Positions 1-63,073 of a stretch of 64,000 bases of DNA are shown here, piece by piece (within the stretch, counting starts at the first letter, position 1; each line of letters opens with the position of its first letter). The translations under genes and the position numbers were made by a program. The stretch is from Escherichia coli (GTDB lineage Bacteria; Pseudomonadota; Gammaproteobacteria; Enterobacterales; Enterobacteriaceae), in NCBI RefSeq assembly GCF_003334305.1, contig NZ_QOWS01000001.1. One strand, given 5' to 3'. Below the pieces are notes generated by a model that ran no database searches, had not been told where the DNA came from, and worked only from the letters and a program-made list of their open reading frames with translations.

Positions 1-267
1 ATTGCCGTCCGCACCTTTTTCCAGCACGGTATATAAATGGTTCTGTGCGCGGAGCTGGCTCATCAGTTGATCACCGCTGAACAAGCTGATTTCACAGATC
101 CCCCAGTCGCCGCCCTGGGCATTCAGCACACGATCGGTCAGTAACGCCTGATGAGCGCGGTGAAAGGCGCCAAAGCCAAAATGAACGATACGTGATTGCA
201 ACTGCTGGCGATCGTAGCGTGGAGCGTGTACATGATGCGGGAGCGTAACGGAGGCAATTGTCTTCAT
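1..267 (-). CDS. yeiQ: Mannitol dehydrogenase-family oxidoreductase YeiQ, N-terminal 89 codons only (gene continues beyond window start)
   Basis: Minus-strand ATG at 265-267; translation MKTIASVTLPHHVHAPRYDRQQLQSRIVHFGFGAFHRAHQA shows a Rossmann GxGxxxRxH motif; sits next to yeiP as in E. coli. Not in the ORF track because no stop lies inside the window. Confidence 0.75.
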   Translation of the reverse strand, partial: MKTIASVTLPHHVHAPRYDRQQLQSRIVHFGFGAFHRAHQALLTDRVLNAQGGDWGICEISLFSGDQLMSQLRAQNHLYTVLEKGADGN

Positions 268-489
268 AGGAGTCACGTCTTAGTAACGATAAATTAACAA
301 TGACAGTGTAAAGTTATATGACAGCAATTGAAATTGGTCTGGATTGTTAATGCGATGAAGTGTGAGGGCGATCAATCAACGAGTGAAAATTGAGGGCGTA
401 AGGTGTTCAGGAAGCGCAAAATAGAAGATTGGTATAATAAATTAAAAAAGGGACAGCCTGAGCTATCCCTTTTCTGCATGCGGCTGAAG

Positions 490-1062
490 TTAGTCAGCAC
501 GCCCCATATAACGGCGTTCTTCGATATGGATACGAATTTTTTCGCCCGGGCTTAAGTATTCTGGTACCTGAATCACCAGACCAGTGCTCAATGTCGCCGG
601 TTTGTTACGGGCGCTGGCAGATGCCCCTTTGATGCCTGGTGCGGTTTCAACGATTTCCAGATCAACGGTCTGCGGCAGCTCAAGCGCCAGCAGTTGACCG
701 TCCCAGGTCAGCACCTGCATGTCCGGCATGCCGCCCTCTGGCATAAACAGCAACTCTTCTTCAATCTGATCTTTGGTGAAGGTATACGGGGTATAGTCTT
801 CTTTATCCATAAAGACATATTCGTTGCCATCGACATAGGAGAAGTCAACGTAACGGCGGGTCAGCGTCACGGTGTCAACGATATCATCACCTTTGAAACG
901 CTCTTCTACTTTCAGCCCGGTACGGACATCAGAAAAACGCATTTTGTACAGCGTAGCGGCACCGCGGGCAGTGGGCGACTGAATATCAATATCCTTAACC
1001 AGCAGCAGTTTGCCGTTGTAATTCAGTACCATACCTTTTTTAATTTCGTTCGCTCTTGGCAT
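490..1062 (-). CDS. yeiP: Elongation factor P-like protein YeiP (EfpL), 190 aa
   Basis: ORF 490..1317 minus; internal start [22 protein letters not shown] at 1062 matches the EF-P family N-terminus and expected length. Confidence 0.9.
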
Positions 1063-1216
1063 CGAAAAATTCCTGTAGTCGAAAATGTCAAAAATATCGC
1101 GACAAAGTACTCGCGACGGGCCTTTCGGGCAAGTGGTATTCGCACTTTTGCTGGTGCAAAAAAGGTGGTACTGTGCGCGCTCATCAATCCGGTGGTTAAC
1201 CTTAAGAGAACAACGT

Positions 1217-1471
1217 ATGAAATGCCGTCTGGGTTGCGGGGCGTGTTGCACTGCCCCTTCAATTTCCAGCCCTATTCCCGGTATGCCAGATGGCAAGCCC
1301 GCCAATACGCCCTGCATTCAGCTTGATGAACAGCAACGCTGTAAAATTTTCACCTCGCCACTGCGACCGAAAGTCTGTGCAGGCTTACAAGCCAGCGCTG
1401 AAATGTGCGGTAACTCGCGTCAGCAGGCCATGACCTGGCTTATCGATCTGGAAATGCTGACCGCGCCTTAA
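1217..1471 (+). CDS. yeiW: Small Cys-rich protein YeiW (UPF0153 family), 84 aa
   Basis: ORF 1085..1471; internal ATG at 1217 gives [14 protein letters not shown]...; AAGAG Shine-Dalgarno upstream; 3' end overlaps setB by 4 nt convergently. Confidence 0.75.
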
Positions 1472-2649
1472 ACATCTTTAATCCGCAGTAAGCAAAACAG
1501 AGTGGCGATAATCATCACCATCGCAAACCAGAACACAGCGTGATAATTCCAGATCTCGGCGACGATGCCCGCCACTGATCCTGCGATGATCCAGCCCACG
1601 CGCGACGTGTTGGTATAGAGCGTGGTGGCTGAACCCGCCTGACCGGGCATCAGATCCTGAAAATAGAGCATCCCGATGCCGCCCAGAATGCCAATAAAAA
1701 TAGCATTTAGCAGCTGCAAGCCCAACAGAATGACAGGTGAATGCGCCATCAGCATTCCTGCGTAAAAACAGACGCCACCCACGGCAGCAACGCGCATTAA
1801 GAAACGCTTACCCAGACGTTTGGCGAAATATCCGGCAATCAACATCGTCGGGATTTCCAGCCCGGCGGCGGTCCCCATCATCACACCGGCCAGTTTCTCG
1901 GGAAGATGCAGTTCGTTGATAATAAATAGCGGCATGTTGATGATGTACAGGCTGTTCGAGCCCCACATCAATGTACAAATGACAAACAGCAGCAGCGTAT
2001 CGCGACGGTTACGGCGCGGCGCTTCGATCGTGCCGGTCGCCAGCGGAAGCTCTTTTTGCATCGACGGTAAAAACAGCCACACCATCACACCGCAAACAAT
2101 AAACGCTACCGCTGCGCTCAGATACATTACCGTAAAGCTGAAACCCATCGCTAAGGCATAAGCCAGCGGTGGGCCAATGACCCATGCCAGTGAAACCTGA
2201 GCGCGTAAAAAAGAGCTGAACATCACCGCCTCACGTCCGGTTTTGTCGGCATGTTCACGGGCAAGGGCAAACATTTGCGGGTTAGCGGTCGAGCCAAAGC
2301 TGCTAAGAAAGACGCCAACGAATAGCAAAACAAAGTAGTTGCGATTCCAGGCAAAAAGGGTGCAGGCCAGCACGCCTAACAGGCAGCAAAAGACAATCAG
2401 CGATTTGCGATCGCCGCGCTTATCAGAGCGCCCGGCGAGAAACTGACTTACCAGAATCCCAATGACAGCGCTGCCGGTAAAGAAGAATCCCACCATCGCC
2501 GGACGAGCATGTACTTCATCAGTAAGAAAAATACTGAGTGTCGGGGTTTGCAGAGCGCCCGCAATACCGGTGAGAAAGGCAACGATTAAAAACGCCGTCG
2601 AGGTCAGGTCAAACGATTTCGCGCTGGAGACTGCGGGGGAGTTATGCAT
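1468..2649 (-). CDS. setB: Sugar efflux transporter SetB (MFS), 393 aa
   Basis: 393-aa polytopic membrane ORF with MFS character; position between yeiW and fruB as in E. coli. Confidence 0.9.
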
Positions 2650-2914
2650 GCTGGTCGATCACTGGAAGAGGAAGACGCGGAGTTTACGCTGCTTGTCAGA
2701 AAATAAACAGACAGCGAAATCAAAAGCGCCACGAATAATCAAAATGCCATTTCACTGTTGCTGATTGGCTGCTGACGCTGCTGAAATGAAATTGCTGATA
2801 ACGGATTTTCCCATCAGCAATTAGGAAAAATGGCAAAAAATTGTGCAGCACATCAAACTTTTGCTCATAACTTTACGGCTTTCCTTGCGTGCTGAAACAG
2901 AAGTATTATGCTTT

Positions 2915-2930
2915 CTTGAAACGTTTCAGC
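2915..2930. promoter_or_regulatory. Cra (FruR) operator-like palindrome upstream of fruB
   Basis: cTTGAAACGTTTCAgc perfect palindrome 87 bp upstream of the fruB ATG; a GCTGAAAC half-site also occurs at 2891-2898. Matches the remembered Cra box TGAAACGTTTCA. Confidence 0.55.
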
Positions 2931-3016
2931 GCGATCTTGTCTTTAACCCTAAGCCAGGTTGGCGCTTTTTTTCTCATAGAGGCTGAATCGTTTCAATTCA
3001 GCAAGAGAGGAGAACT

Positions 3017-4147
3017 ATGTTCCAGTTATCCGTACAGGACATCCATCCGGGCGAAAAGGCCGGAGACAAAGAAGAGGCGATTCGCCAGGTCGCTGCGGCG
3101 CTGGTGCAGGCCGGTAATGTAGCAGAAGGCTACGTCAATGGCATGCTGGCGCGCGAACAGCAAACCTCAACGTTCCTCGGCAATGGTATTGCTATTCCAC
3201 ACGGCACTACCGACACCCGCGATCAGGTGCTGAAAACCGGCGTTCAGGTATTTCAGTTCCCGGAAGGCGTCACCTGGGGTGACGGTCAGGTAGCGTACGT
3301 GGCAATCGGTATTGCTGCCAGCTCGGATGAACATCTGGGCCTGCTACGCCAGCTGACCCACGTACTGAGCGATGATTCCGTTGCTGAACAACTGAAGTCA
3401 GCAACAACAGCAGAAGAACTTCGCGCATTACTGATGGGCGAAAAGCAGAGTGAGCAGCTGAAGCTCGACAACGAAATGCTGACGCTGGATATCGTCGCCA
3501 GCGATCTGCTGACTCTTCAGGCGCTGAACGCTGCGCGTCTGAAAGAGGCGGGGGCAGTTGACGCCACTTTCGTCACCAAAGCCATCAATGAACAACCGCT
3601 GAATCTCGGACAGGGTATCTGGCTGAGCGATAGCGCCGAAGGCAATCTGCGTAGCGCGATTGCGGTAAGCCGTGCGGCAAATGCTTTTGATGTGGACGGC
3701 GAAACGGCAGCCATGCTGGTGAGTGTGGCGATGAATGACGATCAGCCCATCGCGGTTCTTAAGCGTCTCGCTGATTTATTGCTCGACAATAAAGCTGACC
3801 GCTTGCTGAAAGCGGATGCGGCAACGTTGCTGGCGCTGCTGACCAGCGATGATGCGCCGACCGACGACGTGTTAAGCGCGGAGTTTGTGGTGCGCAATGA
3901 ACACGGCCTGCATGCTCGTCCAGGTACCATGCTGGTCAATACCATTAAACAATTTAACAGTGATATTACCGTGACAAACCTTGATGGTACCGGCAAACCG
4001 GCAAACGGACGTAGTCTGATGAAAGTTGTGGCACTTGGCGTTAAGAAAGGTCATCGCCTACGCTTTACCGCCCAGGGTGCAGATGCTGAACAGGCGCTGA
4101 AAGCAATCGGCGACGCTATCGCTGCTGGTCTTGGGGAGGGCGCATAA
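3017..4147 (+). CDS. fruB: Fructose PTS diphosphoryl transfer protein FPr (FruB), 376 aa
   Basis: 376-aa ORF with an EIIA-like N-terminus and HPr-like C-terminus (GLHARPGT motif); first gene of the fruBKA order. Confidence 0.93.
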
Positions 4148-29785: not shown

Positions 29786-31021
29786 TTACAACGTTACCGG
29801 GTGTTCTTTCTCGCCTTTCTTAAACTTCACTTCCCCGAGCTCAATACAACCCACCGGGCAGACGTGACCACAAAGCAGACAACCCACACATTTCTCGGTA
29901 TTACAATGCGGTGTGCGGGTTTTCTCGCTCCATTCCATCGCCTGGTGACCGCCGTCGTAACAGGAAATATAACAGCGTCCACAGCCAACACATTTATCAA
30001 GATTGATACGGGGATAGACAATATAACTGCGGTCTAAATCTTCCGCCGGGACAATATTGTTATTCGCCAGACCTACCATCTCCTGCAGCGAATCAAATCC
30101 CTGATCGGCGAGATAATGCGACAACCCGCTTGCCATATCTTCCACTATCCGATACCCGTACTGCATGATGCCGGTGGTCACCTGTAACGTTGCTGCGCCG
30201 AGCAATAAAAACTCAGCCGCATCCTCCCAGGTTTCAATGCCGCCGATACCGCTGATTGGGAAATCGCGCAGTTCTGGATGGGTGCGCATCTGCTGAATGA
30301 AGCGCAGGGCGATCGGTTTTACCGCTTTACCGGAATATCCGGAAATACTCGATTTTCCGTTAACGATCGGCATACCGATTTTCTGATTAAGATCGATATT
30401 GGTGATGGATTTAACGGTGTTAATCGCCGCAATGCCATCTGCGCCGCCGCGCTTCGCCGCCAGCGCCACTTCGCACATATCACCGATATTCGGCGTCATC
30501 TTCGCCAGCATTGGCAGCGTGGAACCCCGTTTCACTGCCCGACAATATTTTTCTACCAGCTCCGGGCTTTGCCCGACATCGCTACCCATCGCATGAGAAG
30601 TCATTTGCGGACAGGAGAAGTTACACTCGATCATATCCGCGCCAGCTTCTTGCACCAGGCGCGCCAGCTCCTCCCATTGCTGCTCATTTTCCCCCATGAT
30701 CGAAGCGATCAATACTTTGTCCGGGTAATCTTCCTTCAGCTGACGCAGGGCGGCCAGATTCTCTTCCAACGGATGTTCAGCAATCTGCTCCATATTTTTG
30801 AAGCCGATAAAACCGGTATCTTCTTTCACCAGATGATCAAAACGCGGCGAGACTTCGTTGGCGATAAAAAAGCCGATCGTTTTAAACACCACGCCGCCCC
30901 AACCTGTGTCGTAGGCTTTGGCACACATCTCATAGCAGTTGCCTACAGGCGAAGAAGAGAGGCAGAACGGGTTGGGAAACTTCACGCCGCAAAAAGTAAT
31001 CGAAAGATCTTTCGTTAACAT
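29786..31021 (-). CDS. preA: NAD-dependent dihydropyrimidine dehydrogenase subunit PreA (YeiA), 411 aa
   Basis: ORF 29786..31027; start set at 31021 ([19 protein letters not shown]); DHODH-like TIM barrel plus C-terminal 4Fe-4S cysteine clusters. Confidence 0.9.
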
Positions 31022-32253
31022 GAGCAAGCTCCCTCTAAATAGTGATGAATCGCCTCGGCGGCTTCTTTCCCGGTTTTCACGGCATAGACCACGGTTTTGT
31101 CACCCTCAACAATATCGCCAGCAGCAAAGACTTGCGGATCGCGGGTCTGATAATTTTGTGTTTTGATGGTGTTACGCTGCGGCTCTAACTCCGCAAAGGC
31201 ATCCAGTCTGGCATGCTGACCGACGGCGAGAATAATTTTATCTGCCGCCATCGTCAGTTCGCCCGGTAACCGTACATGCTTAAACGTGACTTTATTGCCT
31301 TCCACGGCTACTGGCGTGAATCCATCGATGATCGAAACGCCCAGCTCCCGGGCGCTGGCAAACTCTTTTTCGCTTGCCGGAAACTCATCTAACTCTTCAC
31401 GCGCTATGCAGGTTACCGCCTGACAGCCGAGAACTTTCAGCGTGCTGGCTACGTCCATCGCGACATCACCGCCGCCGATAATTAATGCGCTTTGTGGAAT
31501 GCTGATATCGCCTTGCGCCTGTCGTGCACGTTGCAGGAAGTCGACGGCAATCTCAACGTCGCTATGCTCAAACAGCGATAACCCCGAACCGCTCGATAAC
31601 CCCACGGTGACCAGTACCGCGCGGTTTTCCGCTTTCAGTTGCTCCAGGGTGAGTGTTTTACCGACTTCGTTGTTGCACTTAATGGTCACGCCCATTTTTT
31701 CAATACGGGCGATTTCTGCATCCAGCACTGATTGCGGTAACCGAAATTGCGGAATACCGTTACGCAACCAGCCACCGGGGTGCGCTTCTTTCTCATAAAT
31801 CGTGACGTCATAACCCTGGTTTGTCAGTGTCACACTGGCCTGCAATCCGGCAGGACCTGCGCCAATAATCGCGACTTTGCCGAGCGTTTTAGTACCGGGC
31901 TGATAAATTTCCATCCCAGTTTGTTGTTCAAAATCAGTAACAAAACGCTGTAAGCGACCGATATCAATGGGAGCATCAACACCGGCACGGGTACAACCGC
32001 TTTGGCATAATTTCTCCGTCGGGCACACTCTGGCACAAACGGCACCGAGGGCATTATTTTCGCGAATTGTCTCGGCAGCGCCTTTAAAATTACGAAAGTA
32101 GATTGAGCGAATAAATTTCCCCGGATCGGTCTGTGCCGGGCAAGCCTGACTACAGGGAGCGTCGTGACATAATAAACAGCGAGAGGCTTCTTTAATCGCC
32201 AGTAAAGGCGTAAAAGCCGGAGTGAGTTCATCCAGATAATTTTGTTGCGGCAT
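31015..32253 (-). CDS. preT: NAD-dependent dihydropyrimidine dehydrogenase subunit PreT (YeiT), 412 aa
   Basis: GltD-like FAD/NAD-binding protein (GAGPAG motif); overlaps the preA start. Confidence 0.9.
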
Positions 32254-32296
32254 GTGATCTTCCTTAATGCTATGAGTAATTAAGGCGAACGCTAAA

Positions 32297-32423
32297 TATA
32301 CTCGTCATACTTCAAGTTGCATGTGCTGCGTCTGCGTTCGCTCACCCCAGTCACTTACTTATGTAAGCTCCTGGGGACTCACTCACTTGTCGCCTTCCTG
32401 CAACTCGAATTATTTAGAGTATA
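32297..32423. repeat. ERIC (IRU) element, about 127 bp
   Basis: Hallmark TATACTCGTCATACTTCAAGTTGCATGTGCTGCG ... GCTCACCCCAGTCACTTACTTATGTAAGCTCCTGGGGA ... TGCAACTCGAATTATTTAGAGTATA with terminal inverted repeats. Confidence 0.7.
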
Positions 32424-32571
32424 AATATTGCGTGCTGATATTAAGGCTATGCGCGTGGGGAAATTTAAACTGTGAAAGGATTCACAAATAGCTGCGGTTC
32501 AGAATGTTACATCCGCAGCTTATTGAGTGAAGTAATAATTATTCTCAATAATTAACATAAAAGAGAAAATA

Positions 32572-34567
<1,996 letters not shown>

Positions 34568-41386: not shown

Positions 41387-41559
41387 AAAGTTCTTTGACG
41401 TTGCATTGCTGGCGTAAATGTCAGCAATGCAGCATTTCCTCACGATTCTCCTTTGACGATCGCACTTTTTGCTCGTTATGATGGCGTCGCTAGCCTCAGT
41501 AAATCCTTACTCCGGCGGTGCGCAACCCGTGCGCGTGAACCACTATCTGAATGCTCATC

Positions 41560-61944: not shown

Positions 61945-62028
61945 TAAAAAAACCTGCTGGTGAGGCAGGTTCTTTTATTTACTATTTTCAGGCCTAACAC
62001 CACAGCCTGTGCAACATCGTGTTCCAAC
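61945..62028 (-). ncRNA. Candidate antisense sRNA antitoxin (OrzO/OrzP-type), about 84 nt
   Basis: Minus-strand TTGCAA-17 bp-TATAAT promoter (-10 at plus 62035-62040); predicted 5' end near 62028; strong terminator (AACCTGC-loop-GCAGGTT then TTTTT on minus); first ~20 nt complementary to the toxin leader at 62175-62194. Confidence 0.6.
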
Positions 62029-62554: not shown

Positions 62555-62636
62555 TAAAAAAACCTGCTGGTGAGGCAGGTTCTTTTATTTACTACAGTGA
62601 CGCTAACTTGCTGATTGTGCAACATTTCGTACCAAC
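62555..62636 (-). ncRNA. Candidate antisense sRNA antitoxin, copy 2 (OrzO/OrzP-type), about 82 nt
   Basis: Minus-strand -10 TATAAT at plus 62643-62648 and shared -35 TTGCAA at 62666-62671; terminator 62561-62581 with U-tract; 5' region complementary to the copy-2 leader at 62783-62802. Confidence 0.6.
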
Positions 62637-63018: not shown

Positions 63019-63073
63019 TATACTCGTCATACTTCAAGTTGCATGTGCTGCGACTTTAATTATCTAGAGTATA
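63019..63073. repeat. Truncated ERIC-like element abutting the yehK 3' end
   Basis: TATACTCGTCATACTTCAAGTTGCATGTGCTGCG ... AATTATCTAGAGTATA: ERIC terminal arms with the central part missing. Confidence 0.55.

Follow-up and report, generated by a model that had tools for sequence, protein, structure and literature searches.

An ERIC element in the yeiS–preT intergenic region of Escherichia coli is a strain-variable insertion upstream of preT

The repeats known as ERIC (enterobacterial repetitive intergenic consensus), also called IRU and RU-1, are reportedly the subject of work by Sharples and Lloyd in 1990, Hulton et al. in 1991 and Wilson and Sharp in 2006. ERIC has been known since 1990–91, and its variability from strain to strain is the basis of ERIC-PCR typing. 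Termini consisting of TA, together with a TA target duplication, are published hallmarks of the family (PMC2759123, PMC3184786), and PMC10969869 credits Wilson and Sharp with reporting 14 ERICs that occur in non-K-12 E. coli and that K-12 lacks. The one ERIC mechanism with experimental support is that of Yersinia (De Gregorio 2005), where, according to PMC2229807 and PMC10969869, an RNase E site in the 3′ terminal inverted repeat is laid open by ribosomes that terminate beside the element. The Correia/NEMIS elements of Neisseria provide a second comparison: they are MITEs found in 5′ leaders, with RNase III processing and promoter creation among their described effects, and gene expression can be changed by their leader hairpins or by promoters at their junctions (PMC10969869).

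The element discussed here is located upstream of preT. The preTA genes specify the bacterial dihydropyrimidine dehydrogenase, which inactivates 5-fluorouracil and affects the efficacy and toxicity of capecitabine in mice and patients (bioRxiv 10.1101/820084; PMC11185696). Oxygen controls the transcription of preTA (bioRxiv 10.1101/820084), as does Fur (PMC4676285). In K-12, the region upstream of preT drives a lacZ fusion, binds Fur anaerobically, and is activated by Fur (PMC4676285). The papers on drug metabolism by preTA contained nothing on the preT promoter, and a text search of the literature pairing yeiS with preT returned only noise.

The window analysed is a stretch of 64,000 nucleotides of E. 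coli DNA. The sequence-only reading had placed a full-length ERIC with imperfect terminal inverted repeats between preT and yeiS, and this proved exact, including its coordinates (32297–32423, 127 bp, plus strand). The alignment to the published E. coli consensus, on which that reading had staked its claim, runs without gaps over the full length and matches at 113 of 127 positions (89%). The consensus used is the 127-nt sequence of Wilson and Sharp (2006), as reprinted in Delihas (2007; PMC2759123 Table 1a). Shuffled versions of the element gave a mean of 64 matches to it and a maximum of 75. The agreement is slightly better with the Salmonella SeRU-1 copy, at 117/127. We also made a consensus de novo from 61 independent full-length copies from other Enterobacterales, taken from the matches listed in a search with the core pattern in which one genome per bacterial species was scanned. 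This consensus has TA at both ends, and the window copy matches it at 112 of 127 positions, again with no gaps. The core pattern occurs at a minimum of 120 loci; the matches listed are all in Enterobacterales, and include Citrobacter, Yersinia, Serratia, Dickeya, Pectobacterium, Pantoea and Escherichia albertii. Within E. coli, megablast detects a median of six ERIC places per genome.

The anatomy of the element is equally typical. An inverted-repeat search identified a left arm TATACTCGTCATACTTCAAGTTGCA at 32297–32321, which pairs with a right arm TGCAACTCGAATTATTTAGAGTATA at 32399–32423; the arms are 25 nt long and 80% complementary, and the element starts with TATAC and finishes with GTATA. 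The conserved central core (32339–32382) carries the two sequences used as ERIC-PCR primers, namely the reverse complement of ERIC2 (22 of 22 positions) and ERIC1R (21 of 22), and it contains an inner palindrome of the form CCCCAG..GTAAG/CTTAC..CTGGGG, found by the inverted-repeat search as CCCCAGTCACTTAC/GTAAGCTCCTGGGG. There is one occurrence of the 38-nt core in the 64 kb of the window, where chance would give zero. The plus strand is the orientation of the published consensus, and a transcript in the preT sense (minus strand) would thus contain the reverse complement of ERIC. The window copy is like the rest of the ERIC/IRU/RU-1 family in its length of 127 bp, its terminal inverted repeats, its TA termini and TA duplication, its primer core, its intergenic place, its compensated hairpin, and its multicopy spread through the Enterobacterales. 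There is no structural difference from the family, and the copy falls into the strain-variable class, its locus being empty in K-12. It is concluded that 32297–32423 is an ordinary member of the family in every feature tested, and that it is a routine strain-variable copy of a known kind of element.

At gathering thresholds, no Rfam family overlaps the element. The 129-position model RF02818 (V_AS5, Vibrio antisense RNA AS5) does align to it over its full length (32301–32424, minus strand, 46.7 bits, E 3e-9), but this score is far under the gathering threshold of 96 and membership was rejected: the resemblance comes through the shared repeat. The alignment is consistent with the report of ERIC in Vibrionaceae (PMC10969869), and suggests that the V_AS5 family may itself be an ERIC-derived repeat of Vibrio. 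A 56-codon open reading frame starts inside the element and runs from 32321 to 32491 on the plus strand (MCCVCVRSPQSLTYVSSWGLTHLSPSCNSNYLEY...), antisense to the local genes. It corresponds to the reading frame in ERIC/RU-1 noted by Delihas (PMC2759123), and is most likely not expressed.

All open reading frames around the element are on the minus strand (from left to right: preA at 29786–31027, preT at 31015–32253, the element itself, yeiS at 32572–32811, sanA at 32814–33533 and cdd at 33683–34567). All five were assigned from their open reading frames. For preT, the NAD-dependent dihydropyrimidine dehydrogenase subunit, and yeiS, of the DUF2542 family, there is in addition RefSeq annotation, in the case of preT that of an identical locus, and homologues of YeiS match Pfam PF10808. 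Strain 05-3629 is 100% identical over 621 nt and has the same gene names in RefSeq, with no annotation of a repeat there. The element overlaps no annotated coding sequence. It is upstream of preT, with its end 43 nt from the preT start codon, while 148 nt separate its other end (32423) from the yeiS stop codon (32572–32574).

The sequence on either side of the element has features of its own. After yeiS there is a terminator-like hairpin (32485–32525, minus strand), identified as an inverted repeat and by folding, with an 8-bp GC-rich stem AGCUGCGG/CCGCAGCU followed by AUUUGUG. The region 32470–32571 has a predicted folding energy of −23.8 kcal/mol (z −4.3), and in six alleles the stem is invariant and the loop variable. 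A strict terminator scan does not call this hairpin. On the preT side, a small 7-bp hairpin CCUUAAU(N10)AUUAAGG is predicted over part of the preT Shine–Dalgarno sequence (32262–32285, minus strand). Here too six alleles have the same stem and differ in the loop only, and the hairpin may provide translational control of preT. A second copy of CCTTAAT is found upstream of it, at about 32441–32447.

The sequence-only reading had remarked that ERIC copies vary between strains, and at this locus they do. A query made up of the element and 60 nt on either side was compared with 5426 complete E. coli genomes, and 2200 of them (40.5%) carry the element between yeiS and preT. The best match was at least 99% identical in 2181 genomes, nearly as many as there are carriers, which suggests a single origin for the insertion. 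The comparison with K-12 that had been proposed was also made: K-12 derivatives have a yeiS–preT spacer of 193 bp and no ERIC. The site is likewise empty in ETEC6335, O157:H7 TR01, Escherichia sp. E4208 and one further assembly. The empty sites fall into two flank haplotypes, one like the window (98.8% identical; for example ETEC6335 and O157:H7 TR01) and one like K-12 (94.6% identical), the latter being found also in Escherichia sp. E4208.

Among the 2200 carriers, 232 have an extra structured module of 78 nt inside the element, as in strain GTEN_97 (locus L003, approximately 538–616; GGTTATTCGGCCCATCCATGGGCC...AAATCCGCTCCATGCGGATTTG). Many ERIC copies in other genera contain this module as well; in Dickeya, Serratia and Citrobacter, and also in E. 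albertii, it occupies the corresponding internal position. It is the long-known internal insertion of "large" ERICs. Its presence and absence at a single orthologous locus implies a recent gain or loss of the module. One sampled carrier, strain HCP30S3_I2, has a further 113-bp MITE about 6 bp from the ERIC (locus L005, 361–473), with ends GGAAGGTGCGAATAAGT ... ACTTATTCGCACCTTCC and a CTAA target duplication, which from its ends and target is presumably of the IS5 type. This short stretch upstream of preT has thus taken up at least two different MITEs.

Comparison of filled and empty alleles defines the target site. When 125 nt are taken out of the window at this site, in any of the registers 32296 to 32299, the result is the empty allele of ETEC6335, with no mismatches in 120 nt. 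The difference of exactly 125 nt indicates that the insertion duplicated TA, or possibly ATA, the left copy being at 32296–32298 and the right copy at 32421–32423. A single insertion into the window-like haplotype is more parsimonious than a precise excision. As a source of outgroups, homologues of YeiS yielded only Escherichia-level sequences, with the K-12-like empty haplotype. We considered whether the window-like empty allele could have come from a deletion between 7-nt direct repeats TAAATAT, and rejected this: it predicts a difference of 129 nt, compared to the 125 nt observed. We know of no transposase for moving ERIC.

A stable structure in the transcribed element, which had been suggested from the sequence, is indeed predicted on both strands. 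The fold of the minus strand, which is the sense of yeiS and preT, has an energy of −52.7 kcal/mol (z −7.5), and that of the plus strand −38.9 kcal/mol (z −4.4). In an alignment of 38 non-identical copies from many genera the long hairpin is kept, with compensatory double changes in 8 of 31 pairs, the central pairs being uninformative in this respect as they are fixed by the search pattern. The positions of the terminal inverted repeats pair across the 38 copies and show compensatory changes; pair 6–122, for example, is U-A in the window copy and C-G in most copies. Folding within the flanking transcript, also proposed earlier, was carried out on a 261-nt leader model that extends from just past the yeiS hairpin into preT. 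In this model the ERIC forms its own hairpin as an independent module, with no pairing to the preT ribosome-binding site, and the Shine–Dalgarno hairpin CCUUAAU/AUUAAGG is predicted identically in filled and empty alleles.

The element has no obvious transcription signals. A consensus scan found no sigma-70-like promoter on the minus strand of the ERIC or its junction, and a weighted scan for −35 and −10 sites in the filled, window-like empty and K-12 alleles found nothing above the shuffle background. The best candidate at the ERIC junction, ATGCAA-16-TATATT, scores 6.45, which is below the shuffle median of 8.3. By these scans of three alleles, the insertion neither gains nor loses a promoter-like site above background. 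A terminator scan does not call the ERIC on either strand; its hairpin has an AU-rich base, after which only UUU comes on the sense strand. Like the window ERIC, Correia/NEMIS elements are MITEs with a TA target duplication just upstream of a gene, but they belong to an unrelated sequence family, and neither an IHF site nor a promoter-like junction was detected at the window ERIC. Further upstream, right after the yeiS stop codon, there is a perfect AT-rich palindrome TAATTATTGAGAATAATTA (32534–32555), which is invariant in all aligned alleles. Positions 32534–32552 were the single hit of a Fur-box search and match at 13 of 19 positions, a weak match that is equalled by 8% of shuffles. We offer it as a lead only: it could be where Fur, as reported for K-12, binds anaerobically upstream of preT.

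These observations suggest a simple picture, which we hold with considerable confidence: the ERIC inserted upstream of preT, where it would form a self-contained leader hairpin with a modest effect at most, and it probably persists as a near-neutral polymorphism. The element inserted at a TA dinucleotide in the yeiS–preT spacer, 43 nt upstream of the preT start, on one of two deep flank haplotypes of E. coli, and now segregates as a presence/absence polymorphism. Judging from the geometry, the preTA transcript in carriers most likely runs through the element, because 43 nt cannot comfortably hold a −35 site, a −10 site, a start site and a leader with the Shine–Dalgarno hairpin. The same would apply whether transcription starts at a promoter in the upstream region or reads through from sanA–yeiS. 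In the sense orientation the ERIC would then fold into a long self-contained hairpin within the leader, leaving the ribosome-binding site and its small hairpin unchanged. The insertion also shifts all upstream DNA, the Fur-box-like palindrome among it, away from preT by 125 bp. We expect preTA mRNA to differ no more than modestly in its level or stability. Both alleles are frequent, which suggests that the insertion is close to neutral.

An influence on preT or yeiS expression had been raised in the sequence-only reading. For preT, an effect is possible from position alone. We regard as unlikely the stronger proposal that the insertion changes preTA expression several-fold, either through the leader hairpin, by stabilization or by acting as a processing site for RNase III or RNase E, or by putting an extra 125 bp between the core promoter and a region bound by Fur or an activator. 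Carriers and non-carriers would in that case differ in dihydropyrimidine dehydrogenase activity. The position of the element 43 nt upstream of the ATG is inside the sole 193 bp available for the K-12 preT promoter, a region that Fur binds and activates (PMC4676285), its sense-orientation hairpin is very stable, and ERIC and other MITEs have been reported to alter transcript levels (PMC2229807, PMC10969869). However, the Shine–Dalgarno sequence and its local hairpin are untouched in the predicted fold, the insertion neither breaks nor makes a promoter-like site that exceeds background, and the two alleles are both common (40% vs 60%), which argues against a strong effect on fitness. An effect on yeiS looks unlikely, because the ERIC is 148 nt past the yeiS stop codon and downstream of the terminator-like hairpin. 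The mechanism described for Yersinia would act on the upstream gene: the element would be co-transcribed with yeiS, and terminating ribosomes would expose an RNase E site in the 3′ terminal inverted repeat and so destabilize the mRNA of yeiS (and sanA). The elements are of the same family, the preT copy likewise lies between two co-oriented genes and is downstream of yeiS on the same strand, and the mechanism is summarized in PMC2229807 and PMC10969869. However, the Yersinia elements adjoin the upstream stop codon and are a 3′ feature of the upstream gene, whereas the preT copy is a 5′ feature of the downstream gene. Ribosomes terminating 148 nt away cannot reach it, the hairpin intervenes, and its orientation is probably opposite, the AU-rich arm CUAAAUAAUUCG being the 5′ arm in the sense RNA and not the 3′ arm. 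The published mechanism does not fit the yeiS–preT geometry, and we consider its operation here highly improbable. Much the same low probability attaches to the idea that the ERIC hairpin is a terminator or insulator that blocks read-through from sanA–yeiS into preTA. The sense strand does have a long stable hairpin followed by UUUAGCGUU, but the base of the stem is AU-rich, the U run is just 3 nt, it goes uncalled in the terminator scan, and in all alleles yeiS already has a terminator-like hairpin of its own behind it. A self-contained leader hairpin of modest effect is the reading that we prefer.

How the copy reached this site is a related question, since insertion by transposition also has a rival. 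The closest relative of the window ERIC is the copy between fbaA and pgk in K-12, which is at a different locus and is 97% identical over the whole element. The two copies have 12 of 14 flank bases in common beyond the right end, of the form AA(A/T)ATTGCGTGCT: the window has AAATATTGCGTGCT at 32424–32436 and the fbaA–pgk flank (locus L006, 1628–1641) has GAAAAATTGCGTGCT, giving 10–13 nt in common. A right flank of this type was found in none of about 110 other ERIC copies examined. By rough estimate and not by computation, two copies would share an exact 10-mer at one offset by chance with a probability of about 1e-4. The shared bases are already there in the window-like empty allele, and the K-12-like allele differs at these positions. 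The fbaA–pgk copy appears to be fixed in E. coli and not polymorphic. In every sampled genome without the preT copy the best non-local match is a 140-nt match of the same extent as the fbaA–pgk one, the fbaA–pgk locus itself being confirmed only in DH10B. An E. albertii copy was checked as a possible orthologue of the fbaA–pgk element, and is not one. The shared right flank is unexplained by simple transposition. It is conceivable, if unlikely, that the preT copy arose by recombination that copied the fbaA–pgk ERIC, anchored on the short flank homology, and that the TA "duplication" is incidental. The close identity, the common right flank and its absence from the other copies would all fit, and the 10-mer pre-exists in the empty allele of the same haplotype and hence could have been the anchor. 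On the other hand, what the filled site has beyond the empty one is just the element and a TA/ATA repeat, which is the outcome that ERIC transposition should give, the left flanks show no homology, and 10 nt would be a very short anchor for RecA-dependent exchange. It is also possible that an ERIC was excised after a conversion tract had reached into the flank. Insertion at a TA dinucleotide remains our preferred account of the filled allele.

The element has wider relevance only through preTA, for which a common 125-bp polymorphism in the regulatory region is a candidate source of strain differences in the inactivation of 5-fluorouracil. In the most far-reaching version, which strikes us as quite unlikely, the insertion would be a natural cis-regulatory switch, such that the roughly 40% of strains that carry it express preTA differently, for example through lost Fur-dependent anaerobic activation or altered stability of the leader, and strains would differ in the rate at which they inactivate 5-fluorouracil in the gut. 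A separate possibility, placed at the same low level, is that the shared flank marks templated copying of ERIC, which would mean that ERIC spreads by copying rather than by transposition.

Several other features were seen in the window. A second ERIC-derived element, with an internal deletion and about 55 nt long, is found at 63019–63073, and consists of TATACTCGTCATACTTCAAGTTGCATGTGCTGCG joined to ACTTTAATTATCTAGAGTATA. Its identity to the preT copy is 97% over the left 37 nt and 85% in the right arm. It adjoins the zor–orz region, where two OrzO-P antitoxin RNAs (Rfam RF02083) are present on the minus strand at 61946–62021 and 62556–62629, with scores of 99.9 and 88.8 bits; this pair represents a tandem zor–orz type I toxin–antitoxin locus. 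Finally, a Peptidase-S11 RNA motif (Rfam RF03039) is located at 41475–41555 on the plus strand, with a score of 72.8 bits against a gathering score of 34.8.
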